DNA from: Anaerolineae bacterium
Lineage (GTDB): Bacteria > Chloroflexota > Anaerolineae > UBA1429
DNA: 64,000 nucleotides
Assembly: GCA_040772225.1 (NCBI GenBank)
Contig: JAXGYO010000002.1
Span: 1,066,767 to 1,130,766, forward strand
Direction of reading: 5' to 3'
Positions 13,956-43,273 of the stretch are shown here, in pieces (the first letter of the stretch is position 1; every line of letters begins with the position of its first letter). The notes under the pieces are model-generated. The model was given only the letters and a program-made list of their open reading frames with translations, had not been told where the DNA came from and ran no database searches. The translations under genes were made by a program, and so were the position numbers.

Positions 13956-13958
13956 ACG

Positions 13959-22412: not shown

Positions 22413-22421
22413 GAGCAGGCA

Positions 22422-23474: not shown

Positions 23475-23571
23475 GCACGCCGCGTCATCGGGGAGGGAGC
23501 AGGCGGCGAGCCGCAACGTCAGGACCCAGGATCACTGACCACGAGGCAGCCATAGCCGAGAGGAGCAGGCG

Positions 23572-25461
23572 ATGGACAGGGCAAGGGAAAGGACAACTGC
23601 CGACGAGGAGAGCGCTGCGGTCGAAGATCAACTGAACGCAGTGCTCGCCGAGGGCGAGCATCTGGTCGCCAAACCGGTGCTCCGCGGTGAGGCGCTGGAC
23701 TATGTCATCGTCGCCGAGCAGGCGCTGTTTGTCCTGCACGTTCGCAACTGGAAGGGGCAGATCCGACCCGCCGCGCGCGGCGCCTGGCGCCAGCGGCTCG
23801 ATTCAGGCGAGGTGGTTACCCACGCCAATCCCAAATCCGCGATTCGCCGCAAGCAACAGGCCGTTCAGCGTTTTCTCGAGAGCGCCTTTCCCGCCACCCG
23901 GGTCACCTGCCACCATCTGATTGTGCTTACGGATCCCTCCGCCCAGGTGTTCCTGCACGGAGCCGCCGATCCGCCGGTGGTCGAGATCGGCAATCTGCGC
24001 AGTGAGATGGACAGTCTGATGCTGGCCAGCCGCGGCGATGTGCTGGATGCCCCACTGCGGGAATCGTTGGCAGAAGCCTTTTCCGGCCGAGCCTACCAGA
24101 CCTTTGAGATGGCGAACCAGCCCTTTATCTTTCGTTCCGGGGGCTTTTTCGGGTTCGGCAAGCGCGCACACACCATCCAGCAGGTCATCAAGCACCTCGA
24201 GCAGCATCCTCAGGACGGCATCTACCATCTCTGGAACGGCTCGCTGGCCCAGTGGCTGCGCGAGCAGGGCGCCACGCACCTGGCGGACCTGGCCGTGCAG
24301 GCCATTCGCCACCCCGACAGTGAGCGCATCGCGCTGGAGACATTCCTGCAGCAGTCCGGCCTGGTGGACCGCCCGAGGCTGGTGCAAACACCGCCACGTC
24401 TCAACTTTCATTATGTAGGTGTCGGAGAGCGGGCCGCGATGATCTGGCGCCTCCGCAAAGGCCGTCGCAGCCGCGGATACCTGCATGGTTCCGCCATCAG
24501 CCGCACGCCCTGGCTGCAGGTTGCCCAGGCCTCCTTTGAAGGGCAGATGGACGCGACCGTCACGGTGGACACCGAGGCGATCCCCATCACTGAACGGCCG
24601 GCCCGCGGCCACATCGAGCTGGACACCAATGCCACAGAGCAGCCCATGGACGTGGAGGTGCTCGTGAACGTGCGCTCGAGGCCCTCCACCTTTGAGACGC
24701 GTATCATCCGCCCGCTATGGGGGCTGTTACTGGGCGCGATCATCGGCGCCCTCATCGGCGTGGCCCTGCACACCCTGGGCCTGGACGAGGGCCTCAGCGA
24801 CTGGCTTGCCGCCCGCATACCCTGGCTGCCGCCCGTCGCTGCCAATCAGGCCCTGCCTGCTCTGATTGGTCTGCTATGGGCGATTCTGGGATTCATCCGG
24901 GGCTGGCACCAGCGCTGGGCCTGGCCCACCTGGTATGCCACGCTCCGCTGGCTGGGCCGCACCCTCGCCTGGATGGCCGGCCTCGCGCTGGCCGCCATAG
25001 CAGGCTATGCCCTGCTCCGCTGGCTCTTTCCCATTGTGGAGGGCTGGGCGACGCCCGAGTCCTCTAAACATGCAGCGTTGCTCGGTGCCGCCCTGGGCGT
25101 GATCCCGGGCAGCATCGGCGAGATTCGCGCCTCGCACTATCGCGGCGTGGTCAATCTGGAGCCGCATCCCGTGCGCCGCGTCCTGCGGCCGGTCGCCTGG
25201 GCTGCTCTGGGCGTCGCGCTCCTGGTGGTGATCGTGGGTAGCGTCCGGTTCTTTGCCCCGCAGGTCACCGTTCAGGGAGCGGCAGCAGAGGGGCGCAGCC
25301 GGCTCGAGATTTGGATGGATGCCCGTGAAAGCGATTTGACGGACTTGCGCGACGGGGTACTTTTGCGCTATCATGATAGGAGAGCGACGCCAATTGCCTC
25401 GCCAGCGGCAACCACGCGCCCGACGCAGGCGCCGCCCGCCACGTCGACTCCCGCACCCTGA
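23572..25461 (+). CDS. NERD-domain-like membrane protein
   Basis: 629 aa with GAGAGGAGCAGG SD. The N-terminus LDYVIVAEQALFVLHVRNWKGQIRPAARGAWRQRL...THANPKSAIRRKQQAVQRFL matches the NERD pattern. The C-terminal third has four to five hydrophobic helices (LWGLLLGAIIGALIGVAL, ALPALIGLLWAILGFI, LAWMAGLALAAIAGYALL, VAWAALGVALLVVIVGSV) and a Pro/Thr tail. Confidence 0.75.
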   Translation: MDRARERTTADEESAAVEDQLNAVLAEGEHLVAKPVLRGEALDYVIVAEQALFVLHVRNWKGQIRPAARGAWRQRLDSGEVVTHANPKSAIRRKQQAVQRFLESAFPATRVTCHHLIVLTDPSAQVFLHGAADPPVVEIGNLRSEMDSLMLASRGDVLDAPLRESLAEAFSGRAYQTFEMANQPFIFRSGGFFGFGKRAHTIQQVIKHLEQHPQDGIYHLWNGSLAQWLREQGATHLADLAVQAIRHPDSERIALETFLQQSGLVDRPRLVQTPPRLNFHYVGVGERAAMIWRLRKGRRSRGYLHGSAISRTPWLQVAQASFEGQMDATVTVDTEAIPITERPARGHIELDTNATEQPMDVEVLVNVRSRPSTFETRIIRPLWGLLLGAIIGALIGVALHTLGLDEGLSDWLAARIPWLPPVAANQALPALIGLLWAILGFIRGWHQRWAWPTWYATLRWLGRTLAWMAGLALAAIAGYALLRWLFPIVEGWATPESSKHAALLGAALGVIPGSIGEIRASHYRGVVNLEPHPVRRVLRPVAWAALGVALLVVIVGSVRFFAPQVTVQGAAAEGRSRLEIWMDARESDLTDLRDGVLLRYHDRRATPIASPAATTRPTQAPPATSTPAP

Positions 25462-25464
25462 AGG

Positions 25465-25899
25465 ATGGCCGTTATTGTGAACGCCATACACAGACGAAGT
25501 GAACGCCAGCGCGGCCAGGCACTGGTCGAGACTGCGCTGAGTATGTTGATCGTCCTGGTGCTGCTGGCCGGCATGGTAGACCTCGGGTTTGCACTGGGTG
25601 CACGAGTAGCCGTCAGCAGCGCTTCTCGCGAGGGCGCACGCTTTGGGTCTCGATACCCGGAGAACGACGCGGCCATCGTGGCTGCCGCCAGGGGCGCCCT
25701 GCCCAATACACTGGTCCCCGCCCTCCAGGCGACCGTGACCATCAGCCCTACGCTACCTTCGGGGCGCACCCAGTGGCACGACCTCGAAGTCAGCGTGCGC
25801 TACAACTATCAGCCCTTCCTCGGGAACCTGTTTGGCATATCAGGCACAATCCCTATGACAGCCACAACAACCATGGTGATCAGTGGTGGACCGAACTGA
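25465..25899 (+). CDS. tadE: TadE-like pseudopilin
   Basis: 144 aa, starting 3 nt after the upstream stop. N-terminus RSERQRGQALVETALSMLIVLVLLAGMVDLGFAL is the TadE N-terminal motif (G/QxxVE plus a hydrophobic helix). Confidence 0.8.
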   Translation: MAVIVNAIHRRSERQRGQALVETALSMLIVLVLLAGMVDLGFALGARVAVSSASREGARFGSRYPENDAAIVAAARGALPNTLVPALQATVTISPTLPSGRTQWHDLEVSVRYNYQPFLGNLFGISGTIPMTATTTMVISGGPN

Positions 25900-25957
25900 C
25901 ACGCGGGCAGTTTGAAGGACATCCTGTAATGGCATGGGTTCGTGAAGGCGGTGTGAG

Positions 25958-27079
25958 ATGAGAGAAACGATGCAGACGCACAGAGAGCGCGGACAGACGC
26001 TGGTGATCGTGGCGTTGGCCCTAACCACGCTGTTGTTGATGGTCGGACTAGTGACCGACATCGGCGTATGGTACAACGCGCGGCGCGATATGCAGAACGC
26101 GGCGGACGCAGCGGCCCTGGCGGGGGCGTGGAAGTTCTGCGACCAGAACAACGCGGACTCGGCTACACAGACTCTCGCTCGCAATGAGGCTATCCGTGTG
26201 GCACAGACGGTCCATGGATCAGACCCTGACGGCACCGTGGTTTCTACGGGTAACTCTACGGTCAGCGTAACCACAGCCATTGACTCTCCGCTGTTCTTTT
26301 TCAAGCTCGTGGGCATCGACACCATACCGGTCAACGCGGAGGCCGAGGCCGTCTGCGGTTGCGCCAGCGAGCTCGGCGGGGCCTGGCCCATCGCATTCGA
26401 TCTAGACACCTAGGAATCAGTCGAATGCGGCGAGTCCCTGGTGATTTGGGAAGGCAAAGACGAGCTCCCGTTCGCGGGCGTGGATCTGTGCGTTAGCTGC
26501 TATTGCCCCGCTGGTATCGACGCCCTTGTTGCGTTCGGTGCCACAGGTCTCCCGGGCCTGCCCGCGAACCGAGGATGGCTGTCGCTAAGCTATCCACCGG
26601 AGAACAATTGCGGAGGCGGATCCACTGCCCTTGCTGGCTGGATACTGAACGACTACCCTGGAGCGATTGAGGCAGGTAACTGCGTGATTACGGAGACAGG
26701 CAATAAGACTACCCTTGTCGACTCGGCAAAGACTAGAATGAATAACGATCCTTACGTGTGTGTCGTGATCTTTGATCCTGATCTGAACGATACCTGCACG
26801 GATGCCATGGTCACCACCGGGCAGGTCGGGTGTGGAGAGCCACTCTACGTTGTTGGGACTGGATGTGTCAAGGTAGTGGGCACCTACAAGAACAAGGTTC
26901 TCGGACTGAGCCCCAAGCCCGGAGCAACGCCGCCATGCCCTGCCGGAGCATTGGAAAAGGTCAAGGCGATAATGGCCACCAAGATGTGTAACGACCCTCT
27001 ATGCCCGGTGTCTGGCATCGGCTCCGCCGGTGGCCAGCCAGCACAGGGGTGCATCTTGGCGGCCAGCCTGGTCAAGTAG
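25958..27079 (+). pseudogene. tadG: TadG-like pseudopilin split by a single in-frame TAG (track ORFs 25958..26413 and 26441..27079 share one frame)
   Basis: The N-part HRERGQTLVIVALALTTLLLMVGLVTDIGVWYNARRDMQNAADAAALAGA is the TadG N-terminal motif. TAG is at 26411-26413. The frame continues open immediately afterwards (ESVECGESLVIWEGKD...GWLSL...GGGSTALAGWILNDYPGAIEAGNCVITETGNK...YVVGTGCVKVVG), a typical TadG-like C-terminal region. Confidence 0.6.
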
Positions 27080-27126
27080 CGATATTCTGTGCATCCGCCC
27101 CTAATGTAATCGCAAGGAGTACCGCA

Positions 27127-27525
27127 TTGGCACTCATCGCACATAACGCCACGCGCAAACGCGATCTGATGACCCAGGGCCTGACCGCTGACAGGCCCTG
27201 GTCGCGTGTACGCGGCCTGATCGGCTGCGCACCGTTGAAAGAAGGCCAGGGCCTGTGGATCACCCCCTGCAACGGCATCCACATGCTTTTCATGTCGTTC
27301 GCTATCGACGCGGTGTACCTTGACCGCGAGCGTCGCATCGTAGCGCTAGATGCCGACATGGCGCCGTGGCAGCTGGGGCGCTTTATCCGGGGGGCACACT
27401 CGGTGTTGGAGCTTCCTGCCGGCACGATCGCGGCCACGGGCACCGAGGTGGGCGATCAGCTTATTCTCACGCGCGTTTCAGAGGGAGCGGAGAGAGCGCC
27501 TATGTCACGGACCGCAGGGCGGTAG
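27127..27525 (+). CDS. DUF192 family protein
   Basis: ALIAHNATRKRDLMTQGLTADRPWSRVRGLIGCAPLKEGQGLWITPCNGIHMLFMSFAIDAVYLDRERRIVAL...VLELPAGT matches the DUF192 pattern (RxxGLxG, a GxxF/W block, IHMxFMxFxIDxxxLD, LELPxG). The start is uncertain: TTG 27127 or ATG 27166. Confidence 0.7.
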   Translation: MALIAHNATRKRDLMTQGLTADRPWSRVRGLIGCAPLKEGQGLWITPCNGIHMLFMSFAIDAVYLDRERRIVALDADMAPWQLGRFIRGAHSVLELPAGTIAATGTEVGDQLILTRVSEGAERAPMSRTAGR

Positions 27526-27597
27526 CCGTGGTACATAGGACGGTGACCCCGACCGCCAAGCTGCGGCAGGGAGCCATCGCGGAATCATAAACCTAGC

Positions 27598-27625
27598 AAA
27601 GCCGCCCCGGTTACGGGGCGGCTTT
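27598..27625. terminator. Bidirectional rho-independent-type terminator
   Basis: AAAGCCGCCCCG-GTTA-CGGGGCGGCTTT, a perfect 12-bp stem including A/T flanks. It lies between convergent ends of the DUF192 gene (27525) and the minus-strand tadE-like gene (27661). Confidence 0.6.
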
Positions 27626-27660
27626 AGCGAAAAACCGGAGCGTAGCCCGAACTCACAGGG

Positions 27661-28113
27661 CTATTCTGCCTGCACGGAGGAACGGCCCCTGGCACAGTAT
27701 GTTCCCTGGGGACATTGCACGCCCCCGGGCTCCAGCGTCCTCGCGGCGAAGAGATTACGGATGCCAGGCACAATCAATTCCACCGGATAGTATACAGTCA
27801 CCTGAATCGTCGAACCCAGCGCCCGGTCCGCAACTTCAGGGGGGACGACCGTGATCTGATTGCCGGTGATCGTCCAGGCCGGCAGTGTGGGGCAAAACTC
27901 GTTGACTCTGGTAAGTGTTTGCTCCTGCGACTTGCCCACGAGCGCAACCCGCGCCAGGCTATTGGCACAGTGGTAAGCTGACACGAGTCCGTTTAGCACC
28001 CGCCCGAACTCGAGCAGCCCAAAGATCAGCAGCAGCACCACGGGCAGCACCAGGGCGAACTCGACCAGCGACTGCCCCCGTTCCCTGACCTCTGCCTTGC
28101 TGTAGAATCCCAT
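27661..28113 (-). CDS. tadE: TadE-like pseudopilin
   Basis: 150 aa: MGFYSKAEVRERGQSLVEFALVLPVVLLLIFGLLEFGRVLNG... This is the canonical TadE N-terminal motif. Confidence 0.85.
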   Translation of the reverse strand: MGFYSKAEVRERGQSLVEFALVLPVVLLLIFGLLEFGRVLNGLVSAYHCANSLARVALVGKSQEQTLTRVNEFCPTLPAWTITGNQITVVPPEVADRALGSTIQVTVYYPVELIVPGIRNLFAARTLEPGGVQCPQGTYCARGRSSVQAE

Positions 28114-29055: not shown

Positions 29056-30129
29056 ATGGTCGATACACTGGAGTTGATGCGCCGTCTCTCCGAGGCCCCG
29101 GGGATCTCGGGCCACGAGGAGACCGTGCGCGCCCTGATTCAGGAGGCGATGGCTCCCTTCGCCGACGAGATGCGCACCGATGCCCTGGGGAACTTGATCG
29201 CCCTGCAGCGAGGCGGCGGCACCGGAGAGCAACGCCGGGCCATCATGCTGGCCGCCCACATGGACGAGATCGGGCTGATGGTTTCTGGCTTTGACGGGGC
29301 TTTTTTGCGTTTCGCGCCAGTGGGCGGCGTGGACCTGCGCACCCTGGTGGGACAGGAGGTCACCGTCCACGGCTGCCGGGACCTGCCAGGGATCGTCGCC
29401 AGCCGTCCGCCCCACGTGCTCACCGCCGAGGAGCGCAGCCAGCCGGTGCCTCTGGAAAAGCTGTTCATCGACACCGGCCTCACCGAGCAGGGCCTGCGCG
29501 AGCAGGTGCGCATCGGTGACCTGATCACCATGCGGCGGACGTTCACCGAGCTGGCCAACGGCTACGCCACGGGCAAGGCCATGGACGACCGCGCCGGCGT
29601 GGCCAGCCTAGTGGTCTGCCTGGAGGCGTTGCGGGGCATGACTCACCCCTGGGACGTCTACGCCGTAGCCACGACTCAGGAGGAGGTGGGGCTCAAGGGC
29701 GCCACCGTGAGCGCCTTTGGCCTGACGCCCGACCTGGGCATCGCCGTGGACGTGGGCTTTGGCAAGCAGCAGGGCGTCAATGACAGCAGGGTCATCGAGA
29801 TGGACGCCGGCCCGGCAGTGGCCATGGGACCCAACATCCATCCGAAAATGCGCGCCCGCCTGATGGCCACCGCCAAAGAACTGGAGCTCAAGGTTCAGAG
29901 CGAGGTGGTTGCGGGCGCCTCTGGCACCGACGGCTGGGCCATCCAGGTGTCGCGGGAGGGCATCCCCACCCTGGTGCTCTCGATCCCGCTGCGCTATATG
30001 CACACCTCGGTGGAGACGATCTGCCTCCGCGACATCGATCGCACCGGTCGGCTGCTGGCGTATTTCATCGCCAGGCTGGATGGCGCCGCAGTCGACGAGC
30101 TCGGCCTCGAGGAAGGAGCGACGGCATGA
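29056..30129 (+). CDS. M42 family aminopeptidase (TET/FrvX/YsdC-like), paralog 1
   Basis: 357 aa with AAGGAG SD. M42 pattern: LSEAPGISGHEETVRALI..., DALGNLIA, MLAAHMDEIGLMV, AMDDRAGV, TTQEEVGLKGA. Confidence 0.9.
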   Translation: MVDTLELMRRLSEAPGISGHEETVRALIQEAMAPFADEMRTDALGNLIALQRGGGTGEQRRAIMLAAHMDEIGLMVSGFDGAFLRFAPVGGVDLRTLVGQEVTVHGCRDLPGIVASRPPHVLTAEERSQPVPLEKLFIDTGLTEQGLREQVRIGDLITMRRTFTELANGYATGKAMDDRAGVASLVVCLEALRGMTHPWDVYAVATTQEEVGLKGATVSAFGLTPDLGIAVDVGFGKQQGVNDSRVIEMDAGPAVAMGPNIHPKMRARLMATAKELELKVQSEVVAGASGTDGWAIQVSREGIPTLVLSIPLRYMHTSVETICLRDIDRTGRLLAYFIARLDGAAVDELGLEEGATA

Positions 30130-31178
30130 ACCTGCAAGCATTCACACAGGCCCGCGGCGTCTCGGGCAACGAGGATGCCGCCCGTGAGGTCATCCTGGAG
30201 GCGGTGCGCCCATTCATCGACGATCACCGGGTGGACGCGCTGGGCAACCTGATCTGCCACAAGGCTCCCAGGGGGGGCGCAGACGGGGCAACACCGCTCA
30301 GAGTGATGGTAGCCGCCCATATGGACGAGATCGGCCTGATCATCACCGGCATCAACGCCGATGGCACGCTCTCCTTTGACAAGATCGGGGGCATCGACGA
30401 CCGGGTGTTGCTCTCCAAGCAAGTGCTTGTGGGAGCCGATGCCGTGCCGGGGGTGATCGGCTATGCGCCGATTCATCTGATCCCGGCGGCAGAGCGCGCC
30501 AAGGCCCCCGACATGTCCAGGGCCGTGATCGACATTGGCGCCACAGACAAGGCCGGCGCCGAAAAGCTGGTCTCGCTCGGCGACTATGTCTCCTTCCGTG
30601 GCGAGTGGGCCGTGCTGGACGAGGGCGGCCTGCGCACCGTCGTCGCCAAGGCCCTCGATGATCGGGCCGGCTGCGCCATCCTGGCGGAGCTGCTCCAGGA
30701 GAATTATGCCATCGACCTGTATGGCGTGTTCACCACGCAGGAGGAGGTAGGCCTGCGCGGCGCCCGCGTGGCCGCCCAGCGCATCGCCCCCGACGTGGCC
30801 ATCGTCCTGGAGGGCACCATCTGCGACGATCTGCCCAAGCCCCCTGAGGAAGACATCTCGCCCGTTACGCGCCTGGGTGACGGACCGGCGATCACCTTCA
30901 TGGATCGCTCCGTGATCGCCGATCGCCGCCTGGTCAAGCTGCTGCTGACCGTCGCAGGCGAAAAAGGAATTCCGCACCAGTTCAAGAGCGCCGTGGCGGG
31001 CGGCACCGACGCGGGGGCTATCCACCTCACAGGCGAGGGCGTGCCCTCGGTTACTGTGGCCGTGCCATCGCGCTATATCCATGCGCCCATCAGTATGCTC
31101 AGTCTCAACGATTTCGATCACGCCGTGCAGCTCGTGCGCGCGGCGCTGCATGCTTTGGAGGGAGGGCTCCCGTCATGA
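30126..31178 (+). CDS. M42 family aminopeptidase, paralog 2
   Basis: 350 aa, with a 4-nt ATGA overlap with paralog 1. Motifs: ARGVSGNEDAAREVI, DALGNLIC, VAAHMDEIGLII, ALDDRAGC, TTQEEVGLRGA. Confidence 0.9.
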   Translation: MNLQAFTQARGVSGNEDAAREVILEAVRPFIDDHRVDALGNLICHKAPRGGADGATPLRVMVAAHMDEIGLIITGINADGTLSFDKIGGIDDRVLLSKQVLVGADAVPGVIGYAPIHLIPAAERAKAPDMSRAVIDIGATDKAGAEKLVSLGDYVSFRGEWAVLDEGGLRTVVAKALDDRAGCAILAELLQENYAIDLYGVFTTQEEVGLRGARVAAQRIAPDVAIVLEGTICDDLPKPPEEDISPVTRLGDGPAITFMDRSVIADRRLVKLLLTVAGEKGIPHQFKSAVAGGTDAGAIHLTGEGVPSVTVAVPSRYIHAPISMLSLNDFDHAVQLVRAALHALEGGLPS

Positions 31179-32176
31179 AAGAGATGATTCAGCGTCTGGT
31201 CGAGGCTTATGGCCCCTCGGGTAACGAGGCGGGCATCGCCGCCGTCATTCAGGAGATGGTGCGCCCCTACGTGGACGACCTGCGCACCGATGCCCTGGGC
31301 AACGTGATCGCGCTCAAACGCGGCACGGGCGGCGGCGTTCCTGTGATGGTGGCCGCCCACATGGACGAGATCGGCGTCATCGTGACCTGGGTGGATGATG
31401 AAGGCTTTTTGCGGTTCGCGCCCACCGGCGGCGTCTCCCCTGTCACCCTGATGGGCGGCCGGGTGCGCTTCGCCAACGGCACGCTGGGCGTCATCGGCTG
31501 GGAGCGCTGGATGCGTCCTGACGCCGGCACGCGCCGGCCCGAACTCGACGAGATGTTCATCGATGTGGGCGCCACCTCGAAAGAAGACTGCCCCGTGGGG
31601 ATCGGTGATGCGGCCGGCTTTGTGCGCCCGTTCGAGGATCTGGGCAACCGGCTGGTGGCCAAGTCCATGGATGACCGCATCGCCTGCGCCGTGGCCATTC
31701 AGGCGCTCAAGGAGATCACTTCCACGCCCAACGATCTGTACGTGGTGTTCACCGTGCAGGAAGAGGTCGGCACGCGCGGCGCCCTGACCGCCGCCTATGG
31801 CATCGAGCCCGCCCTGGGCATCGCCGTGGACGTGACCATGACCGGTGACACGCCCAAAGCCCGCCCCATGGCGGTGAGCCTGGGAGATGGCCCGGCGATC
31901 AAGGTCATGGACTCGGGCATGCTGGCCCACCCGGACGTGGTGCGCTGGATGACCACGACGGCAGAGGCGCTGGGGATCGCCTATCAGCGCGAGGTCCTTC
32001 TGGGCGGCAGCACCGACGCGCGCGCCATCCAGACCTCGCGGGCGGGCGTGCCCGCCGGCTGCATCTCGATCCCCTGCCGGTACGTGCACACGCCGTCGGA
32101 GATGGTGGACACTGGCGACGTGGAGGGCGCGGTCAAGCTGTTGACCGCCCTGCTGTCGGGACCCATCGTTCTCTAG
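31175..32176 (+). CDS. M42 family aminopeptidase, paralog 3
   Basis: 333 aa, with a 4-nt overlap with paralog 2. Motifs: AYGPSGNEAGIAAVI, DALGNVIA, VAAHMDEIGVIV, SMDDRIAC, TVQEEVGTRGA. Confidence 0.9.
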   Translation: MKEMIQRLVEAYGPSGNEAGIAAVIQEMVRPYVDDLRTDALGNVIALKRGTGGGVPVMVAAHMDEIGVIVTWVDDEGFLRFAPTGGVSPVTLMGGRVRFANGTLGVIGWERWMRPDAGTRRPELDEMFIDVGATSKEDCPVGIGDAAGFVRPFEDLGNRLVAKSMDDRIACAVAIQALKEITSTPNDLYVVFTVQEEVGTRGALTAAYGIEPALGIAVDVTMTGDTPKARPMAVSLGDGPAIKVMDSGMLAHPDVVRWMTTTAEALGIAYQREVLLGGSTDARAIQTSRAGVPAGCISIPCRYVHTPSEMVDTGDVEGAVKLLTALLSGPIVL

Positions 32177-32188
32177 TTCCAAGTGCCA

Positions 32189-32220
32189 AACGGGGGAGGC
32201 CAACAACGGCCTTCCCCGTT
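32189..32220 (+). terminator. Terminator-like hairpin after the M42 operon
   Basis: AACGGGGGAGGCC-AACAAC-GGCCTTCCCCGTT, a 13-bp stem with one G-U pair. It begins 13 nt after the stop. The T-tract is weak. Confidence 0.5.
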
Positions 32221-32239
32221 CTCCGTTCCTGCCAATCCG

Positions 32240-33445
32240 TGGCCCTGTACTCTGCGATTGAGTGCTGGGGCGCGGGCAGTGAGGCCCGCGGCGGTCGGGA
32301 CCGGTGCACTCCGCGATTTAGTGTTGGGGCGCGGGCCGCCTGGCCCGCATGCTCTTGCTGACGCAATTGGCGAGCAGGATGCCGTCTAAAGCCGGCGGTC
32401 CATGGGACCTGTAGGCCGCCAGCGTTCTGGTGCTATGGAACGGGGCGCGGGCAATCCCTGGCGATGCAATTGGCGAGCAGGATGCCGGCTAAAGCCGGCG
32501 GTCCATGGGACCTGTAGGCCGCCAGCGTTCTGGTGCTATGGGACGGGGCGCGGGCCGCCTGGCCCGCATGCTGGTGCTGACGCTAGACGGATGCCGGCTA
32601 AAGCCGGCGGTCCATGGGACCTGTAGGCCGCCAGCGTTCTGGTGCTATGGGACGGGGCGCGGGCCGCCTGGCCCGCATGCTGGTGCTGGCTAGACTACAA
32701 CACGGATGCCGGCTAAAGCCGGCGGTCCATGGGACCTGTAGCCCGCCAGCGTTCTGGTGCTATGGGACGGGGCGCGGGCCGCCTGGCCCGCATGCTGGTG
32801 CTGACGCAATTGGCCAGGAGGATGCCGGCTAAAGCCGGCGGTCCACAAGACCTCTTGCCCGCCAGCGTTCTGGTGCTATGGGACGGGGCGCGGGCCGCCT
32901 GGCCCGCATGCTGGTGCTGATGCAATTGGCGAGCAGGATGCCGGCTAAAGCCGGAGGCCCACAAGACCTGTCGCCCGCCAGCGTTCTGCTGGTACGGGAC
33001 GGGGCGCGGGCCGCCTGGCCCGCATGGTGGTGCTGACGCAATTGGCGAGCAGGATGCCGGCTAAAGCCGGCGGTCCATGGGACCTGTAGCCCGCCAGCGT
33101 TCTGGTGCTATGGGACGGGGCGGGCCGGGCCCGCCTGGTGCATGCTCTTGCTGACGCAATTGGCGAGCAGGATGCCGGCTAAAGCCGGCGGTCCATGAGA
33201 CCTGTAGGCCGCCAGCGTTCTGGTGCTATGGGACGGGGCGCGGGCCGCCTGGCCCGCATGCTCTTGCTGACGCAATTGGCGAGCAGGATGCCGGCTAAAG
33301 CCGGCGGTCCATGGGACCTGTGCCGCCAGCGTTCTGGTGCTATGGGACGGGGCGCGGGCCGCCTGGCCCGCATGCTGGTGCTGACGCAATTGGCGAGCAG
33401 GATGCCGGCTAAAGCCGGCGGTCCATGGGACCTGTAGCCCTCGTC
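32240..33445. repeat. Noncoding tandem array: about ten units of roughly 116 bp, each with three GC-rich hairpins
   Basis: The unit motif GGATGCCGGCTAAAGCCGGCGGTCCATGGGACCTGTAG starts at 32377, 32480, 32589, 32704, 32820, 32936, 33052, 33170, 33286 and 33400. Degenerate partial units lie at 32240-32376. The period is 103-118 nt (mostly 116) and not a multiple of 3. ORFs appear on both strands in shifting frames, which argues against coding. Confidence 0.9.
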
Positions 33446-33448
33446 GCC

Positions 33449-34249
33449 TCAGTCCAGCGCCGCGCGCCACGCCGCCAGCATCTCGGGCAGGTCGGCATAG
33501 ATCAGGTCCGGCGGCGCCTCGTAGGCAAGCGCCTCTTCGCGGGTGGAGATCCCCGTCTCAACCATAATCGTGTGAATCCCTGCCCGGTGGCCGCCCAGGA
33601 TATCCGTATCCAGCCGGTCCCCAAGGATCGCGGTATCCTCCGAGCTGCCGCCCAGCATCTCCAGCGCCTCCAGCAGCGCCGGCGTCCCCGGCTTGCCGAT
33701 GATCAACGGCTCCACGTCAGTGGCCGCCGTGATCGCCGCCTGGATGCTGCCCGCCCCGGGGACGATGTCCCGCTCCAGCGGGTAGGTCTTGTCGGGGTTG
33801 GTGCCGATAAAGGTCGCCCCGTCACGGATGGCGAGGGTGGCGGTCACCAGCTTGTCATAGGTCAGGTACTTGTCCCAGCCGGCCACCACATAGGCCGACT
33901 CGCGCCCACCGATGACGAAACCGCGCGCCTCCAGCGCGTCTACCAGCGCCTGCTCGCCCACGACGAACACCCGGCTGCCAGCCGGGGCGTGCACCGCCAG
34001 GTACTGCGCGGTTGCCACGGAGGAGGGAAAGATCTGATCCTCGGGCACATCCATGCCCATCCCCAGGAGTCGCGCCCTGAATTGCGCCGCCGTGAGGGTA
34101 GAGTTGTTGGTAACCAGCAGGTAGCCCAGGCCGCGCTGCTGCAGAAACCGAATCAGGTCGGCAGCGCCGGGGAGCGCCGTGTGCCCGCGATACAGCACCC
34201 CATCCATATCCACCAGCAGGTTGCGAATCTGTCCCAGTCCGATGCTCAT
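33449..34249 (-). CDS. HAD-superfamily hydrolase, subfamily IIA (NagD-like phosphatase)
   Basis: 266 aa. Motifs: LLVDMDGVLYRG (DxDG), YLLVTNNST, GKPG, and GDRLDTDILGGHRAGIHTIMVETG. Confidence 0.9.
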   Translation of the reverse strand: MSIGLGQIRNLLVDMDGVLYRGHTALPGAADLIRFLQQRGLGYLLVTNNSTLTAAQFRARLLGMGMDVPEDQIFPSSVATAQYLAVHAPAGSRVFVVGEQALVDALEARGFVIGGRESAYVVAGWDKYLTYDKLVTATLAIRDGATFIGTNPDKTYPLERDIVPGAGSIQAAITAATDVEPLIIGKPGTPALLEALEMLGGSSEDTAILGDRLDTDILGGHRAGIHTIMVETGISTREEALAYEAPPDLIYADLPEMLAAWRAALD

Positions 34250-35788: not shown

Positions 35789-37459
35789 TTGACACCTGCT
35801 CGCACTGCACCATCCACCTGCCCTGCTGAACTCTTTGGCAAGCCCCTGCGCGGCGATCATGCTCTGGCTTACGGCGCGGTCGCGGCGGGGGTCAGCCTGG
35901 TCACCGGATATCCCGGCTCGCCTGCCACGCCCGTGTTCGACGCGATCCTGGCCGCTAGCGCGCCAGGCGAGCGGATTGTCCAGTGGGCCCCCAACGAAAA
36001 GGTTGCCATGGAGATGGCCATGGGCGCATCGCTGGCCGGCCAACGCTCACTGGTTGTGCTCAAGTCGGTGGGACTCAACGTCGCCCTCGATCCGCTGGCC
36101 ACCTTTAGCCTCTCAGGCTGTTTCGGCGGGCTGGTGATCCTGCTGGGCGATGACCCTGGCGGCTGGAGTTCTCAGAACGAACAGGACACCCGCTGGCTGG
36201 CACGCACGGCCGAGGTGCCCGTGATCGAGCCGGGAGATATTCGTGATGCGGCCAACCTGATGGTGCAGGCTTACGCCTGGTCCGAGGCTCATGGGCTGCC
36301 GATTATCCTGCGCATCACCAACAGCTATGCCACCGAAAAGGCGATGGTGGATCCGCCCTGGCAACTGCCCCGCGCTATGGGCGTCTTTCTGCGCAAGCGC
36401 GGCCGCTGGGTCGTGCTACCGACGACCGTCGTCAAGCGCCATCGCTCGCTGCATCGCCACCTCCGTGACCTGCAGCGCGATCTCGAAGGCTCACCCTATG
36501 ACCGTGTTAGCGGGAGCGGGCCGCAGGGCGTCATCGCCGTGGGGCATACCCTGCCGCGGGTGCGCGAGGCCCTGGCTGCAGACACCCAGGTGAGCCTGCT
36601 CTCGCTAACCAGCGTCTGGCCGCTGCCCGAGCAGGCGCTGGTCCAGTGGGCAGCCGATGTGGAGAGCGTCCTGGTCGTTGAGGAGGGCGGGTCCTTTGTA
36701 GAGAGCCAACTGCGGGGCCTGTTCCAGAGAGTGGGGGTGCAGGCGCAGGTACACGGCCGCGAAACTCGGCTGCTCCCCGATGAAGGAGAACTGACGGTCG
36801 CGGATATCGCTGCCGGGTTGGAGGCCTTCCGTCCCGGCCTGAGCGCGCGCGTTTCAGCAGCCCCTGCGCGCGCAATGCCCAGCCGCGTGCCGCTCTGCGA
36901 GGGGTGCGGCTATACGCCGCTCTTTGAGGCGCTGCTCGCCGCCATGGAGAAGCACGGCGGGCGAAACCGCCACATCGTCGTGGGCGAGACCGGCTGCATG
37001 GTGCGCGCTGACCTGCCTCCTATGGAGCTTTTCGATGTCAAGTACGGCCTCGGCTCAGGCCTGGGGATGGGCCTCGGCCTGGCCTTGAGCACGAAGCGGC
37101 AGCGCGTCGTCTGCCTGGTGGGAGACTCGTCCTTTTTCCACAGCGACAGCAACGCGCTGCCGCAGGTGATGCAAGCCAACGTCCCCATGACAATCATCGT
37201 GCTGGATAACGAGGTCACCGCGCTAACCGGCGGACAGGCCCATCCCGGCACGCCACATGACGAGCGGGGCACTAGCCGGAGCCAGCAGGACATCGTGCCC
37301 ATCTTGAGAGCCTACGGCATCATTCCTGCAGTCGTCATGCCCAGCAACCCCGAGGCCATGGCACAGGCGCTGGAAGCCGCCCTCGAAACCACCGGTCCCG
37401 CCTTTATTGTCGCCCGCGTGCCCTGCCCTCTCTATGCCAGCCGGGAAGAGACGTCATGA
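35789..37459 (+). CDS. Indolepyruvate/2-oxoacid:ferredoxin oxidoreductase alpha-like TPP enzyme (no partner beta subunit seen)
   Basis: 556 aa with a TTG start 5 nt after AGGAGG. N-terminus LRGDHALAYGAVAAGVSLVTGYPGSPATPVFD is IorA-like. TPP motif: VGDSSFFHSDSNALPQVMQANVPMTIIVLDNEVTALTGGQ. I did not see a ferredoxin-type CxxCxxCxxxC cluster. Confidence 0.7.
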   Translation: MTPARTAPSTCPAELFGKPLRGDHALAYGAVAAGVSLVTGYPGSPATPVFDAILAASAPGERIVQWAPNEKVAMEMAMGASLAGQRSLVVLKSVGLNVALDPLATFSLSGCFGGLVILLGDDPGGWSSQNEQDTRWLARTAEVPVIEPGDIRDAANLMVQAYAWSEAHGLPIILRITNSYATEKAMVDPPWQLPRAMGVFLRKRGRWVVLPTTVVKRHRSLHRHLRDLQRDLEGSPYDRVSGSGPQGVIAVGHTLPRVREALAADTQVSLLSLTSVWPLPEQALVQWAADVESVLVVEEGGSFVESQLRGLFQRVGVQAQVHGRETRLLPDEGELTVADIAAGLEAFRPGLSARVSAAPARAMPSRVPLCEGCGYTPLFEALLAAMEKHGGRNRHIVVGETGCMVRADLPPMELFDVKYGLGSGLGMGLGLALSTKRQRVVCLVGDSSFFHSDSNALPQVMQANVPMTIIVLDNEVTALTGGQAHPGTPHDERGTSRSQQDIVPILRAYGIIPAVVMPSNPEAMAQALEAALETTGPAFIVARVPCPLYASREETS

Positions 37460-38742
37460 CAGTTCGATTCCTCCATGCGGCAGACATCCACCTGGGGAAC
37501 CGGCAATATGGCCGCCAGGAGCGCCAGGACGACTTTGCCCGCTCCTTCCGTCACCTGGTACAGGCCGCCATCGACGCTCACGTCGACTTTGTACTGCTGG
37601 CAGGCGATCTGTTCCACAAGCGTACCGTCGAGGCCCGCACCTTTGTGCAGACGGCCGGCCTTTTGAGCGTGCTCAAAGAAGGCAACATTCCTGTGCTCGC
37701 GATTGAGGGCAACCATGAGCGCCCCTTTTTCAGCGAAGGGTTCTCCTGGCTGGACGGCCTGGCTGAACTCGATTTGCTGCGCGTGCTCTCAGGCGAGTAT
37801 CGCGACGGGGCCATCGTGCTGACCCCCTATGACGATGCCCGCCATCGCGGCGCATACATCGACATCAAAGGGGTTCGCGTCTACGGGCAGGCCTACTTTG
37901 GAGCTACGACTCCGCGGGTGGTAGCCGATCTGACCGCCGCCCTCGACGGCCTTTACCCGAGCGAGACCCAGCCCCGCCCGATGTTCTCTATACTGATGCT
38001 GCATGCCGGCCTGGAGGGCGTCCTGGATCACTATACCGGCACGCTCACACACAGTGCACTCGATGGGCTACGACCGCACATTGATTATGTCGCCCTGGGG
38101 CACATCCACAAGCCTTACATCCACGATGATTGGCTCTATAATCCTGGCTCGCTGGAGAACAATAGCGCCGATGAAGCACAGTGGGAAGACCGCGGCTACT
38201 TTATCGTCGATATAGAGCCCGGCTCCCCTGCCCGCCACAGCGCCACACTGCATCGCAGCACGCGCCGGCCCTATTTGCGACACAGCTTTTCGGTGGAAGC
38301 CTTCGAAACGCCCGAGGCGCTGATTTCGGCGCTGAGTCGGGATCTGGAACCATTCCGGCGCGATGATCAGCCCATCTTTGAGCTGCGCCTCACCGGAGTC
38401 CTTAACTTTGGCCGGCAAGACCTCGACCTCGCGCGCATCCAGCAAACGGCCGAGACCATCGTCCATCCGCTGCTGTGCCAGATCCAGGACCATACTCGCA
38501 GCAACGCCTACGAGTTCCGCACCGATGAACAGATGTCACGGCAGGAATTGGAGCGCAGGGTGCTGACCGAGATCGTGGAGAACGACATCCGCCGCAGGCC
38601 ACAGGCCGCACTCTGGGCAGACGCCGCGCTGCGCATCAAGCAGCTCGCCCTGGACGGAGCAGATCCGCCGGCCATCATCGAGATACTCTCAGAGGTGCTC
38701 GAGACAAAAGGCAGAGACGATGCGCCGCAGGAGCAGGCCTGA
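37456..38742 (+). CDS. sbcD: Mre11/SbcD-family nuclease
   Basis: 428 aa. Calcineurin-like phosphoesterase motifs: FLHAADIHLG, LLAGDLFH, AIEGNHE, MLHAGLEG, ALGHIH. The ATG overlaps the upstream stop (ATGA). Confidence 0.9.
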   Translation: MTVRFLHAADIHLGNRQYGRQERQDDFARSFRHLVQAAIDAHVDFVLLAGDLFHKRTVEARTFVQTAGLLSVLKEGNIPVLAIEGNHERPFFSEGFSWLDGLAELDLLRVLSGEYRDGAIVLTPYDDARHRGAYIDIKGVRVYGQAYFGATTPRVVADLTAALDGLYPSETQPRPMFSILMLHAGLEGVLDHYTGTLTHSALDGLRPHIDYVALGHIHKPYIHDDWLYNPGSLENNSADEAQWEDRGYFIVDIEPGSPARHSATLHRSTRRPYLRHSFSVEAFETPEALISALSRDLEPFRRDDQPIFELRLTGVLNFGRQDLDLARIQQTAETIVHPLLCQIQDHTRSNAYEFRTDEQMSRQELERRVLTEIVENDIRRRPQAALWADAALRIKQLALDGADPPAIIEILSEVLETKGRDDAPQEQA

Positions 38743-41462
38743 TGCTGATCTATTCCGTCAGGCTGGAGAATTTCAAGAGCTATGAGCAGGCCACGATTCG
38801 CTTTGAGCTCGGCACCAACGCGATTGTCGGACAGAATGGCGCCGGCAAGAGCTCCATCCTCGAAGCGATCGGCTTTGCGATGTTTGCCCACGCGGGTACC
38901 GCCAGACAGAGCGACCTGCTCCGAGAGGGTGCCACGTCCGGCTCGGTGACCGTGACGTTCTGCTCCTCGCTGGACGAACGGCGGTATGAGGTGGAGCGCG
39001 TGCTAGGCAAGACGGGCACCACCCGGCACAGAATCTATGATCCGGAGGCCGGCGGCATGGTGCTGGCCGAGAGCGTCAACGAGGTGACCCGTTGGCTGCG
39101 CGAGCATCTTGGAATCGATCAGGCAGGCAATCTCGATGACCTGTTCCGGAACACCATCGGAGTCCCTCAGGGCACCTTTACCGCGCCTTTCTTGATGACC
39201 GCAGGAGAGCGCAAGCACCTCTTCGATCCGCTGCTCCAGGTGGACGAGTACGATCGCGCCTACCAGAGATTGTTGGAGACGGCGCGACACCTGGCCGGCC
39301 AGCGGAACGCCCTGAATCAGGAGATCGCACGCCTTGAAGGGTTGCTGGCGCAACTGCCCGCCCTCATCACCGAACGGGATGCCCTGCACACGGATATTGC
39401 GGGCCTGGAAAGGACCTCTCGCACACTGGAGGTGACGCTGGCATCCGCTCGCGACGAGCTTGAGAGACTGGACCTGGCCGAGCACGAGGTGCGTCGGGTA
39501 GAACAAGCGCGGACAGAGATCGCGGCTCAGCACCAGGCCGCAGAACGTGCCCGAGAGAGCGCCGAGCTCAATGTGCGCGAGGCCGAGCAGGCCAGCACGC
39601 GGTTGGCTGGCGCCGAGCCCGGCTATCGCGAATACCTGGCCGCCGAGGCGCGCCGACACGCCCTGGAGCAGGACCGCAGCGCCAGGGAAAAGTCTATCCG
39701 AGCACTTGAGCAGCAACGGGTGGCCGAGAGTCGCGTTCAGACCCGGCTGGAGCAAGTACAACATGCGCTTGATGAGATTGCCGCGGCGGAGCGCGATCTC
39801 GCCGCATTGCAGCCTGACGTAGCTCGCCAGACGGAGCTGCAACGCGCCCTGGAGGATGCCCGGGCCGAGCAGCGCATCTTGCAGGAGACGAGACGCCAGG
39901 TAGCGACGATCGAGCGCGACCTGGCTGGGCAGCGCGAGCAGCTAGCAGGCGTTGAGGCGGAGCTTGCGCGCGTGCCGGGTATGCAGGCAGCTCTGGACAG
40001 GCTTGACCAGGCGCTAGAAACAATGGCAGAGACCGAGCGCGCGTTAGCTGACGAGCGCAGTACCGTCCAGGCCTATGTGAACCGCCTGAAAGAGCAGTCA
40101 GAGGTGCTGGAGAGAGAACACGGCGCCACCTGCCCGGTATGCGAGGGCGAGCTCAACCCTGAGCACCGTCGGGAACTCCTGGGACGTAATCAGGAACAGA
40201 TAGGAGAGTTGTCGGCGCGACTCAACGGAATCGTGGCGGAGCTGCGAAACTTGAGCGGAAAGAAGGCCAAGGCCCAGCGCGAGCGCTCTGCGCTGGAGCA
40301 GCAGCTGCGCGCCCAGCCTTCAGATGCGCAGCGTGACCATCTGGCTGATGCGGTCAGCAACAGCCAGAAGCGACTGGATGCTCTGCTGAAGCAGATGGCG
40401 GAAGCGGAGCAGCGGGCTGCCCAGATCACAGCGATCACACAGGAGCTTGAAGCGCTTCAAGATCCAGCAGCGCGTGCGCACGTGCTGGCCAGCCGCGTCG
40501 CGACCAGAGACCAGCGCAACGGCGAAAAGACAGAACTTGAGGCCGAATCCTCCCGCCTGGCGTCAGAGAGCGCGCATTTGCAGCGCCAGCTCGCGCAGTA
40601 TGACCGGCTGGATGAGGCACTTGCTGAGGTCGCGCAGACGCTGGCCCGAACGCGCGACGCTCACGACCAGTTCCTTTCAGCGCGCGACCTTGCAAGCCGC
40701 CTGGAGCAGCGGCGCGAGGACCTGGAGCAATGCCGGCGCGAGCTTGATGAGCTTGCATCTCGACTGGACGCGCTGACACAGGAGCAGGCCCGCGCCTCCG
40801 AAAGCTACAATGCCAGCCAACATGCGCAGGTCAGGCAACAGGTAGAGCAGGCAAACGCAGAGGTCATCCGCGCACGGACGCAACTCGCTTCATCCCAGGG
40901 ACGCCTTGCTGTGGTCGAAACGCAGATTGGCGAGCTGGAGGCAGCCCAGTTGACCCAACGCGCCAAACAGCGTGAGGCGGAGCATATCGCCGGACTGACC
41001 AGCACGCTAGAGGAGATGCGCACGCTGCTGCACTCGGCAGGGCCTTACGTTACCCGCCAACTGGTAGCCAACATCTCCACGCAGGCCTCGGCCTATTACG
41101 CGGACATCATGAACGATTACGCGGGACGTCTCACCTGGTCAGAGGACTATGAGCTGTCGCTCGAGGTTAAGGGGTACAAGCGCAGCTTCCAGCAACTCTC
41201 CGGCGGCGAGCAGATGAGCGCCGCTCTGGCGCTGCGGCTGGCCCTGCTGCGCCAGTTGACCAACATTAGCATCGCATTCTTTGACGAGCCGACTGCCCAT
41301 CTCGATCCGGAACGCCGCGATGGTCTCGCCGAAAAGATCATGCAGGTCAAGGGCTTTGACCAATTGTTCGTGATCAGCCATGACGACACCTTTGAGCGTT
41401 CAGCACAGAACTATATCCGCATCGTCAAGGAAAACGGCGTCAGCATGGTGGCCGGGGCGTAA
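38742..41462 (+). CDS. sbcC: Rad50/SbcC-family ATPase
   Basis: 906 aa. Walker A GQNGAGKSSILEAI, long coiled coils, and a central zinc hook CPVCEG. Signature LSGGEQMSAALALRLAL, Walker B FFDEPTAHLD, and D-loop/His VISHD. The start shares 1 nt with the mre11 stop. Confidence 0.9.
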   Translation: MLIYSVRLENFKSYEQATIRFELGTNAIVGQNGAGKSSILEAIGFAMFAHAGTARQSDLLREGATSGSVTVTFCSSLDERRYEVERVLGKTGTTRHRIYDPEAGGMVLAESVNEVTRWLREHLGIDQAGNLDDLFRNTIGVPQGTFTAPFLMTAGERKHLFDPLLQVDEYDRAYQRLLETARHLAGQRNALNQEIARLEGLLAQLPALITERDALHTDIAGLERTSRTLEVTLASARDELERLDLAEHEVRRVEQARTEIAAQHQAAERARESAELNVREAEQASTRLAGAEPGYREYLAAEARRHALEQDRSAREKSIRALEQQRVAESRVQTRLEQVQHALDEIAAAERDLAALQPDVARQTELQRALEDARAEQRILQETRRQVATIERDLAGQREQLAGVEAELARVPGMQAALDRLDQALETMAETERALADERSTVQAYVNRLKEQSEVLEREHGATCPVCEGELNPEHRRELLGRNQEQIGELSARLNGIVAELRNLSGKKAKAQRERSALEQQLRAQPSDAQRDHLADAVSNSQKRLDALLKQMAEAEQRAAQITAITQELEALQDPAARAHVLASRVATRDQRNGEKTELEAESSRLASESAHLQRQLAQYDRLDEALAEVAQTLARTRDAHDQFLSARDLASRLEQRREDLEQCRRELDELASRLDALTQEQARASESYNASQHAQVRQQVEQANAEVIRARTQLASSQGRLAVVETQIGELEAAQLTQRAKQREAEHIAGLTSTLEEMRTLLHSAGPYVTRQLVANISTQASAYYADIMNDYAGRLTWSEDYELSLEVKGYKRSFQQLSGGEQMSAALALRLALLRQLTNISIAFFDEPTAHLDPERRDGLAEKIMQVKGFDQLFVISHDDTFERSAQNYIRIVKENGVSMVAGA

Positions 41463-41464
41463 CA

Positions 41465-42646
41465 ATGCTCAGTCGATCTCACGTCATTCGTGCTCTCCAA
41501 TCCAAGCGTCAGGAATTCGTGGCCTTTGAGAGCGAGCGCCTGGAGACCCGCGACAGGTACGCGGAATATGTGCAGGCACTGTCCGCGCAGAGTCAGGCAG
41601 GGCTGGCGGGCGCCCTAAAGGGATACCTGCTCCCCGGCGCGCTGCCCACATCGGAGCGAATCGCGGGGCAGGGTATCGTACGGCCCTTTGGTCTTTCGTG
41701 GACGAACCACGAGGAGGCGCGGGAATGGGCCATGGAGCGCCTGCGGGGTGTGCGCACGGTGGCCGTGGATGGCTCGCAGATAACGCCGGATCCCAGTCTG
41801 ATGATGCCTGTAGGTGCTGTGCAGGTAGGCTGGTTCGAAAACCCCCACGACACCTCTCAGCGATATATCAAGGACATTCACTTTGAGGTCCTGGCGCCAG
41901 CCGAACTATCGCCGGAGCAGCTTGAGCGGCAGACGTTTCCTGACCAGCTGGTCAACGCCCGGCGGTTCGACCTCGAGTGCCAGCAGGTCGCTGCCACGCT
42001 GCGCGCCCACGCGGGCGAACACCCCACCCCGGTGGTGTTCTTTGACGGCTCGCTGGCGATCTCCTTCGCCGCGCAGATGCGTTCCGAGATGCGGCAGCGC
42101 TACATCGGCGGCATCCTGGAGGTGTTACAGGCCTCGGAAGAGTCGCGTGTTCCTCTGGTGGCGTACGTGGATACCTCCTATGCCACAGACCTGATCTCCA
42201 TGCTCAAGTACTTGCACAATGAGACACGGCCGCCGCGCATCAGCGATGGTGCCATTTTGCGACCGCTGATGGCCTGGGGCGATCGCACGGAGGCCTGGGT
42301 CTGCGCTCGCGATGACAAGCTCTTTGAGGACCACGCCGACCTGTCCTACTATGACCGGGTGCATTTCCTGTACCTCAAGGTCTCCGGCAGCAACCCGCCG
42401 GTACGACTGGATGTGCCCGCGTGGATACTGGAGGACGGCCGCCTCGATGAGGTCATCGATATCGTGCGCGCCGAGTGCATCGTCGGCACGGGATATCCCT
42501 ATGCGATCGAGACGGCCGATGCTCTCGCCGTCATCACGATGCAGGACCGCGAGCGGTTCTACGGTGTACTCCAGGAGTTCGTACAGCAGAACCGGTTGAG
42601 CTGGACCTTTTCGCGCAAAGCACAGAGCAAGCGGGGCCGGCGTTAG
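41465..42646 (+). CDS. nurA: NurA-like nuclease
   Basis: 393 aa, starting 2 nt after the rad50 stop. It has the RTVAVDGSQI motif (NurA catalytic DGS) and sits next to herA. Family call is from motif and context only. Confidence 0.65.
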   Translation: MLSRSHVIRALQSKRQEFVAFESERLETRDRYAEYVQALSAQSQAGLAGALKGYLLPGALPTSERIAGQGIVRPFGLSWTNHEEAREWAMERLRGVRTVAVDGSQITPDPSLMMPVGAVQVGWFENPHDTSQRYIKDIHFEVLAPAELSPEQLERQTFPDQLVNARRFDLECQQVAATLRAHAGEHPTPVVFFDGSLAISFAAQMRSEMRQRYIGGILEVLQASEESRVPLVAYVDTSYATDLISMLKYLHNETRPPRISDGAILRPLMAWGDRTEAWVCARDDKLFEDHADLSYYDRVHFLYLKVSGSNPPVRLDVPAWILEDGRLDEVIDIVRAECIVGTGYPYAIETADALAVITMQDRERFYGVLQEFVQQNRLSWTFSRKAQSKRGRR

Positions 42647-42674
42647 CCGGACCGTTACCGGACAGGAGTGTGCG

Positions 42675-43262: not shown

Positions 43263-43273
43263 GGAGAGTGATC

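Follow-up and report, generated by a model that had tools for sequence, protein, structure and literature searches.

The window analysed here, a stretch of 64,000 nucleotides (nt) from the chromosome of an Anaerolineae bacterium (positions 1,066,767 to 1,130,766 of contig JAXGYO010000002.1, assembly GCA_040772225.1), contains a tandem array of hairpin-bearing units of about 116 nt between an operon of three M42 aminopeptidase genes and a convergent gene for a HAD-IIA hydrolase (hereafter HAD). On balance, this array is probably a lineage-specific minisatellite, built of palindromic modules resembling repetitive extragenic palindromic (REP) sequences and bacterial interspersed mosaic elements (BIMEs), and not a gene. 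By the plain definition it is an intergenic minisatellite, or variable number of tandem repeats (VNTR) locus, and in organisation it is closest to the BIME-2 clusters of Escherichia coli and to VNTR minisatellites. Its membership in a REP family is not established. The parts of the array are as follows, with u4 as the reference unit:

32240–33445: whole repeat region between the M42 operon and the HAD gene, located by sequence inspection
32240–32376, + strand: degenerate left part, two ~59-nt sub-repeats (ACTCYGCGATT...TGGGGCGCGGGC-loop-GCCCGC) and then the first junction
32377–33399, + strand: nine full units (u1–u9), starting at 32377, 32480, 32589, 32704, 32820, 32936, 33052, 33170 and 33286
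33400–33440, + strand: partial tenth unit of 41 nt with hairpins 1 and 2, ending 8 nt from the HAD stop codon
32708–32723, + strand: hairpin 1 of u4 (GCCGGC-TAAA-GCCGGC), extendable to 32704–32728
32724–32741, + strand: hairpin 2 of u4 (GGTCC-ATG-GGACC), followed by T and GTAG
32774–32791, + strand: hairpin 3 of u4 (GCGGGCC-GCCT-GGCCCGC), with a conserved 5' head, GGGGC
32792–32819, + strand: variable junction or linker of u4 (ATGCTGGTGCTGACGCAATTGGCSAGSA)

The units, delimited by splitting the sequence at GGATGCCG, are all arranged head-to-tail, are 103, 109, 115, 116, 116, 116, 118, 116 and 114 nt long (u1–u9) and share 76–98% pairwise identity. Tandem Repeats Finder places a repeat at 32466–33440 with a period of 116, 8.5 copies and 90% matches, as well as a higher-order period of 348. 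A 33-nt core occurs nine times and a 28-nt core eight times in the array; both are absent from shuffled sequence and from the rest of the window. The array is richer in G+C than the window (0.69 versus 0.64). It contains several 6-bp palindromes per unit at regular spacing (GCCGGC, CCATGG, GCATGC and CAATTG), and the tetranucleotide GTAG stands in seven of the ten units, where it is separated by 1 nt from the 3' end of hairpin 2 and immediately precedes a weak fourth hairpin; hairpins 1 and 3 are untagged. The linker is the most variable segment of the unit, and the u2/u3 and u3/u4 junctions are unique variants. Other variants are shared: u5 and u6 have the same altered hairpin 2, and CTCTTGCT and GTAGG/GTAGC also recur between units.

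Most of the layout given by the original prediction, an earlier reading of the same DNA, is reproduced. Its ten unit starts are recovered exactly (as nine full units and one partial), as are the degenerate copies 5' of the array (the two ~59-nt sub-repeats), the variant hairpin 2 in two adjacent units and the position between convergent genes, with an 8-nt gap between the last partial unit and the HAD stop. The array is non-coding, as had been stated, with 6–12 stops per frame in all six frames and a period that is not a multiple of 3. It also differs, as stated, from CRISPR arrays, with which it shares regularly spaced palindromic repeats: the entire 116-nt period repeats without unique spacers, and a Pfam scan of the window proteins found no cas gene. 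By contrast, the claim that an exact 38-mer opens all ten units fails, since a G of hairpin 1 has become T in u1, while u5 and u6 read CACAAG, u8 reads CATGAG and u9 lacks AG. Nor does every unit have the three perfect hairpins ascribed to it: hairpin 3 is missing from u1 and rearranged in u7, and u6 is mismatched in both hairpin 1 and hairpin 2. Hairpin 2 had also been described as nested in a GGCGG...CCGCC helix; because part of this helix coincides with the 3' arm of hairpin 1 and part with the 5' arm of hairpin 2, it is a competitor of both hairpins and cannot enclose the latter.

Two observations are those expected of a collapsed or inflated repeat: short-read assemblies encoding identical HAD and M42 proteins cannot cross the array but terminate inside it from both sides, and the order of units differs between assemblies. 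We nevertheless consider an artefact most improbable. The DNA runs that contain array 31-mers number at least 20 and come from 16 studies, which sampled digesters, wastewater and sludge. When contigs of four metagenome runs were mapped onto one unit, with the unique u3/u4 junction as the single-copy depth reference, the summed word depth over the unit was ~190–630 compared with 20–32 at that junction; the single-copy flanks had depths of 8–25. These values correspond to roughly 7–20 units per genome in four independent metagenomes, which argues that the array is real, and the ratio leaves little room for many further copies of the unit outside it. Furthermore, the units bear ordered, distinctive variants, and the unique u2/u3 and u3/u4 junctions are recovered as contigs in several runs.

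The strongest evidence on the nature of the array comes from the same site in relatives, which were ranked by the amino-acid identity of their HAD protein to that of the window and which keep the gene order of three M42 genes facing HAD. Homologues of HAD are annotated as proteins of Chloroflexi or Anaerolineae metagenome-assembled genomes (MAGs). The spacers between the convergent genes compare as follows:

95% HAD identity (L029): at least 365 nt as far as the end of the contig, another block with a period of ~236 and the terminator hairpin on the HAD side
90% HAD identity (L026): 61 nt, terminator hairpin alone
89% HAD identity (L021–L025): 351 nt, terminator hairpin and then hairpin 3-linker-hairpin 1-hairpin 2-other hairpins-hairpin 3-linker-hairpin 1, that is, two diverged units with a period of 167
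86% HAD identity (L027, L028): 541 nt, 2.4 copies of a different 94–96-nt unit made of a hairpin 1 variant and GGTCGGCG-TCT-CGCCGACC
81% HAD identity (L013–L020, including GCA_012719135.1): 55 nt, terminator hairpin alone
73% HAD identity (L030): 65 nt, terminator hairpin alone

Since some close relatives have nothing at this site and others have repeats of a different kind, the array is not a conserved RNA gene. Variation extends to the species itself, where it is seen as differences in unit order and content in short-read contigs: one assembly with an identical M42 protein (L011) has a different first unit, and another with an identical HAD protein (L009) a different last unit. At the same time, the filled sites have features in common. 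The left boundary of the repeats in L021 and the degenerate left part of the array are homologous, and a terminal hairpin 1 adjoins the HAD stop in L021 and L027 as it does in the window. Two types of module recur across lineages: family A has the form GAT[GA]CC-stem-[TC]AAA-stem, and family B consists of (T)GGGGCGCG followed by a palindrome. By these sequence comparisons, the spacer is a hypervariable mosaic repeat locus and a hot spot for the amplification of palindromic modules.

The stems of these modules are maintained by compensatory changes. In hairpin 1, whose stem is preserved in this way both in relatives and in other genomes, GCCGGC/GCCGGC is replaced by GCTGGC/GCCAGC; across its variants (n=17), 93% of cells are paired and double changes occur at three of the six pairs. 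In hairpin 2, GGTCC/GGACC becomes GCTCC/GGAGC in L021 (GCTCC-AAG-GGAGC). Hairpin 1 can be extended to GGAUGCCGGC-UAAA-GCCGGC-G-GUCC, with a computed folding energy of -15.9 kcal/mol, and stable hairpins are present in every unit. Like REP sequences, which are imperfect palindromes of 20–40 nt, hairpins 1 (25 nt) and 3 (18–28 nt) are both short GC-rich palindromes lying in an intergenic spacer.

Covarying stems would also be expected if each 116-nt unit gave a discrete RNA, either as a small structured RNA gene of its own or through processing of one precursor. A tandem array of small RNAs (sRNAs) of this type, NsiR1, has reportedly been described in Nostoc. Its units each have their own promoter and terminator and are conserved across species. 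The present array is similar to NsiR1 in being intergenic and consisting of direct repeats of ~100 nt with hairpins, its sequence is found in eight RNA sequencing (RNA-seq) runs, and G-U pairs slightly favour the + strand. Nevertheless, we regard separate RNA genes as improbable for several reasons. (i) The units show no promoter or terminator consensus, and a scan of 31900–33800 that covered sigma-70 promoters found no sigma-70-like promoter or intrinsic-terminator-like site. (ii) Folds of whole units barely beat those of shuffled sequences (z = -1 to -2.4), a result that also counts against the minisatellite of palindromic modules favoured here. (iii) An Rfam search gave nothing at the gathering score and nothing of note at a cut-off of E ≤ 10 (best E = 1.1, 17 bits against a cut-off of 40), which agrees with the earlier statement that no known non-coding RNA family was recognised. 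(iv) Per copy, the array has a lower RNA depth than the gene upstream of it. (v) Unlike NsiR1, the element is missing from some close relatives and different in others. (vi) Covariation in a palindrome is to be expected for hairpins of DNA just as for those of RNA. The structured RNA amplified in tandem that the original prediction proposed is not supported, given the Rfam result, the weak whole-unit folds, the lack of a promoter or terminator consensus and the absence of the element at 73%, 81% and 90% HAD identity. ARAGORN found no tRNA-like unit in the array.

The RNA data are unstranded Logan contigs of RNA-seq runs. In one study the last M42 gene has a depth of ~30, compared with 0–4 for the first two; the single-copy left boundary of the array (32105–32363) has depths of 2.5–6.6 in four runs, array contigs have depths of 2.5–12.5, and HAD has a depth of 0 in all eight runs. 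Low-level read-through transcription of the array is expected from its place 3' of two convergent genes, and the pattern fits such read-through from the M42 operon past its terminator; it may also fit a stabilised 3'-proximal segment of the mRNA. The elements that bound the array are the following:

29056–32176, + strand: upstream operon of three tandem M42 aminopeptidase paralogues (Pfam PF05343, E = 1e-80 to 1e-88)
32189–32220, strand unassigned: GC-rich, terminator-like 13-bp hairpin (-26.6 kcal/mol; z = -4.0 on the + strand and -2.5 on the - strand)
33449–34249, - strand: convergent HAD-IIA hydrolase gene (Pfam PF13344, PF13242 and PF00702)

The terminator-like hairpin, between the M42 stop and the array, is the sole spacer element common to all relatives, and folding calculations suggest that it is probably a bidirectional terminator. 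The three M42 paralogues contain DNA segments that are 65–86% alike.

The array itself might have been selected as a terminator or insulator, its hairpins stopping and stabilising the convergent transcripts and preventing collision or antisense read-through, with the copy number raised by selection. Its location between convergent genes, the stable hairpins in every unit and the drop in RNA depth from ~30 in the last M42 gene to 2–8 in the array and 0 in HAD all agree with such a role, and REP325 of E. coli acts in this way, being a partial terminator and a stabiliser of the upstream mRNA (bioRxiv 10.64898/2026.03.23.713779). Yet relatives manage with the 13-bp terminator alone in a spacer of 55–65 nt, the array hairpins lack U-tracts, and every lineage has a different repeat, which argues for drift or amplification over a selected design. 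We therefore think it unlikely that selection for termination built the array. By analogy with REP sequences, its hairpins most likely act at most as 3'-end barriers.

Among known systems, the minisatellite of palindromic modules proposed here is most readily compared with BIME-2. At any one locus these elements occur as several well-conserved copies in tandem, their number differs from strain to strain, and an enzyme-driven route of amplification has been proposed for them (PMC3333891). Similarities with E. coli BIME-2 clusters, such as REP325 between yjdM and yjdN, are threefold: (i) both are extragenic tandem arrays of composite units made of small GC-rich imperfect palindromes and linkers; (ii) copies are conserved within the locus, while their number and linkers vary between strains, the relatives here having 0, ~2, 2.4 and ~10 units; and (iii) both are found 3' of genes or between convergent ones, where read-through transcribes them. 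Of the three readings offered in the original prediction, namely a structured RNA, a REP/BIME-like array and a protein-binding or terminator array, the REP/BIME-like one fits best, given the GC-rich palindromes with linkers, the convergent genes, the conserved copies and the relatives that differ in number and composition; the structured RNA is not supported.

Several observations weigh against the assignment. BIMEs alternate REP and inverted REP sequences of one family, whereas the hairpins here are arranged head-to-tail and are unrelated in sequence. Hairpin 3 is not detectably an inverted hairpin 1 (491 of 2000 shuffles scored as high), and we rejected an inverted-copy origin because its similarity to the reverse complement is not significant against shuffles. 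BIMEs are tagged with GTAG; here GTAG is found in seven of the ten units, near hairpin 2 but not beside hairpin 1 or 3, which speaks neither for nor against the assignment. BIMEs are also dispersed at hundreds of sites and linked to REP-associated tyrosine transposases (RAYTs); neither feature is found in the window, in which a Pfam scan of ~45 proteins detected no Y1/RAYT or other transposase. Neither the unit nor any of its modules has a second site in the other 62.8 kb of the window or in the flanks of relatives (up to ~8 kb on each side of the gene), so the dispersal that defines REP sequences is not seen there. In addition, because the array is multi-copy, low-level carry-over of DNA could explain part of its RNA signal.

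A closer taxonomic parallel is provided by the GTAG-23 REP blocks of Thermomicrobium roseum and Roseiflexus, also Chloroflexi, with clustered REP blocks reported for T. roseum (Di Nocera et al. 2013, PMC3733652). The array resembles these clustered blocks in organisation. In sequence, blastn of the unit and of the spacers of relatives gave no similarity to the T. roseum replicon NC_011961, and when the first 100 kb of that replicon were searched for GTAG-23 blocks, no tandem array was found.

Minisatellite VNTRs of the mycobacterial interspersed repetitive unit (MIRU) type occur in mycobacteria. MIRUs occupy ~40 loci and contain short open reading frames (ORFs) in phase with the neighbouring genes. 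The array shares with MIRU-type VNTRs the intergenic position, the tandem repeats of 40–120 bp and the potential as a typing marker; the copy number of MIRUs differs between close strains, as that of the array may do. Unlike MIRUs, it is known from one locus, has stops in all frames and has a period that is not a multiple of 3.

Palindromes spaced this regularly could also serve at the DNA level as binding sites for a dimeric protein, such as gyrase or a nucleoid or partition-like protein. There are several 6-bp palindromes in each unit, and BIMEs bind gyrase, IHF and Pol I (PMC3333891). However, the Pfam scan found no candidate gene for a binding protein beside the array, the linker, which would be the likeliest carrier of a specific site, is the most variable part of the unit, and the site is empty in relatives; such a binding array is in our view very improbable.

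Searches beyond the window bear on whether the unit or its hairpins are dispersed. The original prediction had named a common dispersed element as the finding that would refute it, and the searches bear this out only by half: no dispersal is seen for the 116-nt unit, whereas hairpin 3 occurs again in a second Anaerolineae contig. A pattern from the middle of the unit has no match in JGI metagenome contigs, probably because assemblies break at the array. Hairpin 1 has no match in viral contigs, the unit matches plasmids once and weakly (Azospirillum), the spacers of relatives have no relevant match among plasmids including T. roseum NC_011961, and a literature search for the hairpin sequence found none. 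The loose ends of Logan contigs are uninformative on the dispersal of elements of at least 31 nt, as unitigs stop at repeat boundaries. In the positive case, a 23-nt hairpin 3 pattern matches a sediment contig (L032) that is Anaerolineae by its closest named homologue, and the full 26-mer is identical there. The copy lies in a 61-nt tandem array of 3.5 copies, in a divergent intergenic region with a different gene context; this array ends with CCTGACAATTGG, which resembles the window linker CTGACGCAATTGG. The same contig contains two arrays, the 61-nt hairpin 3 array at 4814–5025 and a second, unrelated array of CTGCCCC/GGGGCAG hairpins at 1478–1859. Tandem hairpin arrays may be common in Anaerolineae.

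Hairpin 3 is also found in at least two other contexts in digester metagenomes, at depths near that of this genome. Metagenome and RNA contigs (X1–X4 and X25) join hairpin 3 (32325–32350 and 32542–32569) to unrelated flanks of lower G+C, for example ...GAAAATAGATATCGCCCA|hairpin 3|CCTGCGTGCCGGCGAG..., and their depths track this genome across four samples. They may represent other copies in this genome or in one that co-varies with it.

Hairpin 1 (21–29 nt; GATGCC-stem-TAAA-stem-GGCGGTCC) has matches in MAGs labelled Alphaproteobacteria, Hyphomonadaceae, Acidobacteriota and Planctomycetales and in an unclassified bacterium. These eight loci (L001–L008) read GATGCCGGCTAAAGCCGGCGGT(C/A)C and are usually intergenic pairs, direct or inverted, with covarying stems and a conserved TAAA loop; the hairpin nearly always stands beside a sister hairpin with matching flanks and a covarying stem. 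By our estimate, chance alone would give 1–5 matches to a GC-rich pattern of 20 bases in 596 Gb, and as a palindrome the pattern amounts to ~15 independent bases. With eight loci against 1–5 expected, we do not accept these cross-phylum matches as homologues; they may reflect convergence or, in view of the conserved flanks and the sister hairpins beside them, shared ancestry. That the hairpin modules are mobile, enzyme-propagated families which cross lineages, with arrays as their amplification product, is an idea to which we give only a small chance. If true, it would point to a REP-like system outside the GTAG and CGTC super-families, with a mobilising enzyme still to be named.

For the lineage-specific minisatellite that we favour, we infer the route of amplification and any effect on RNA as follows. 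In the ancestor, the shared terminator hairpin would already have been followed by several small GC-rich hairpins in a short mosaic, with 'hairpin 3-linker-hairpin 1' present twice as a direct repeat. The relative with 89% HAD identity has this arrangement twice in direct orientation, its rightmost hairpin 1 abutting the HAD stop. Unequal recombination or replication slippage between the direct repeats may then have amplified one unit, after a deletion to 116 nt, to about ten copies. An enzyme-driven route of the BIME-2 kind is an alternative for this step, although no such enzyme is seen in the window. Later local duplications or conversions could have given rise to the u5/u6 pair and to the shared CTCTTGCT and GTAGG/GTAGC variants. 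The array would be carried as neutral or selfish DNA, and its hairpins, like those of REP sequences, might form partial barriers to RNA polymerase, and so to transcription, and to 3'-5' exonucleases.

The surroundings are those of an ordinary chromosome, with genes for AlaRS, ClpXP, the Tad pilus, RecG, FakA, L28, Rpe and RlmN and a Mre11-Rad50-NurA-HerA operon. Side observations on the remainder of the window are listed here:

5966–7786: ORF of 606 aa on the strand opposite the tRNA cluster, probably spurious because it overlaps the tRNAs and has no Pfam match
7540–7897, - strand: cluster of tRNA-Gly(GCC), tRNA-Leu(TAG) and tRNA-Lys(CTT)
8446–11616, - strand: long ORF of 1056 aa without a Pfam family at E ≤ 1e-5
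13038–16244, - strand: long ORFs of 390, 436 and 230 aa, likewise without a family at that threshold
57720–60419, + strand: long ORF of 899 aa, likewise without a family at that threshold
16537–28113: Tad-type pilus cluster (T2SSF, T2SSE and two TadE), among whose genes are others for a PD40-repeat protein of 1162 aa, a KaiC/DnaB-like ATPase and a NERD-domain protein
37456–44947, + strand: operon of a Mre11-like phosphoesterase, a Rad50-like ATPase with a zinc hook, NurA, a small ORF and HerA, an archaeal-type DNA-end resection set in a Chloroflexota chromosome, kept in relatives L013–L015
14230–14316: small tandem repeats, 17 nt x 2.9 beside 7 nt x 5.7
12082–12116: small tandem repeat, 16 nt x 2.3
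55404–55450: small tandem repeat, 22 nt x 2.1

In brief, the importance of the array is modest, and it reveals no new RNA class or mechanism. It accounts for the breaks seen here in short-read assemblies of this Anaerolineae lineage, which is widespread in digesters, it is a candidate VNTR for strain typing, and it adds a well-documented BIME-like tandem hairpin cluster outside the Proteobacteria. Furthermore, the relatives provide a natural graded series of 0, ~2, 2.4 and ~10 units at one syntenic site, which is usable for studying the effects of 3' hairpin arrays on termination and mRNA stability of convergent genes.

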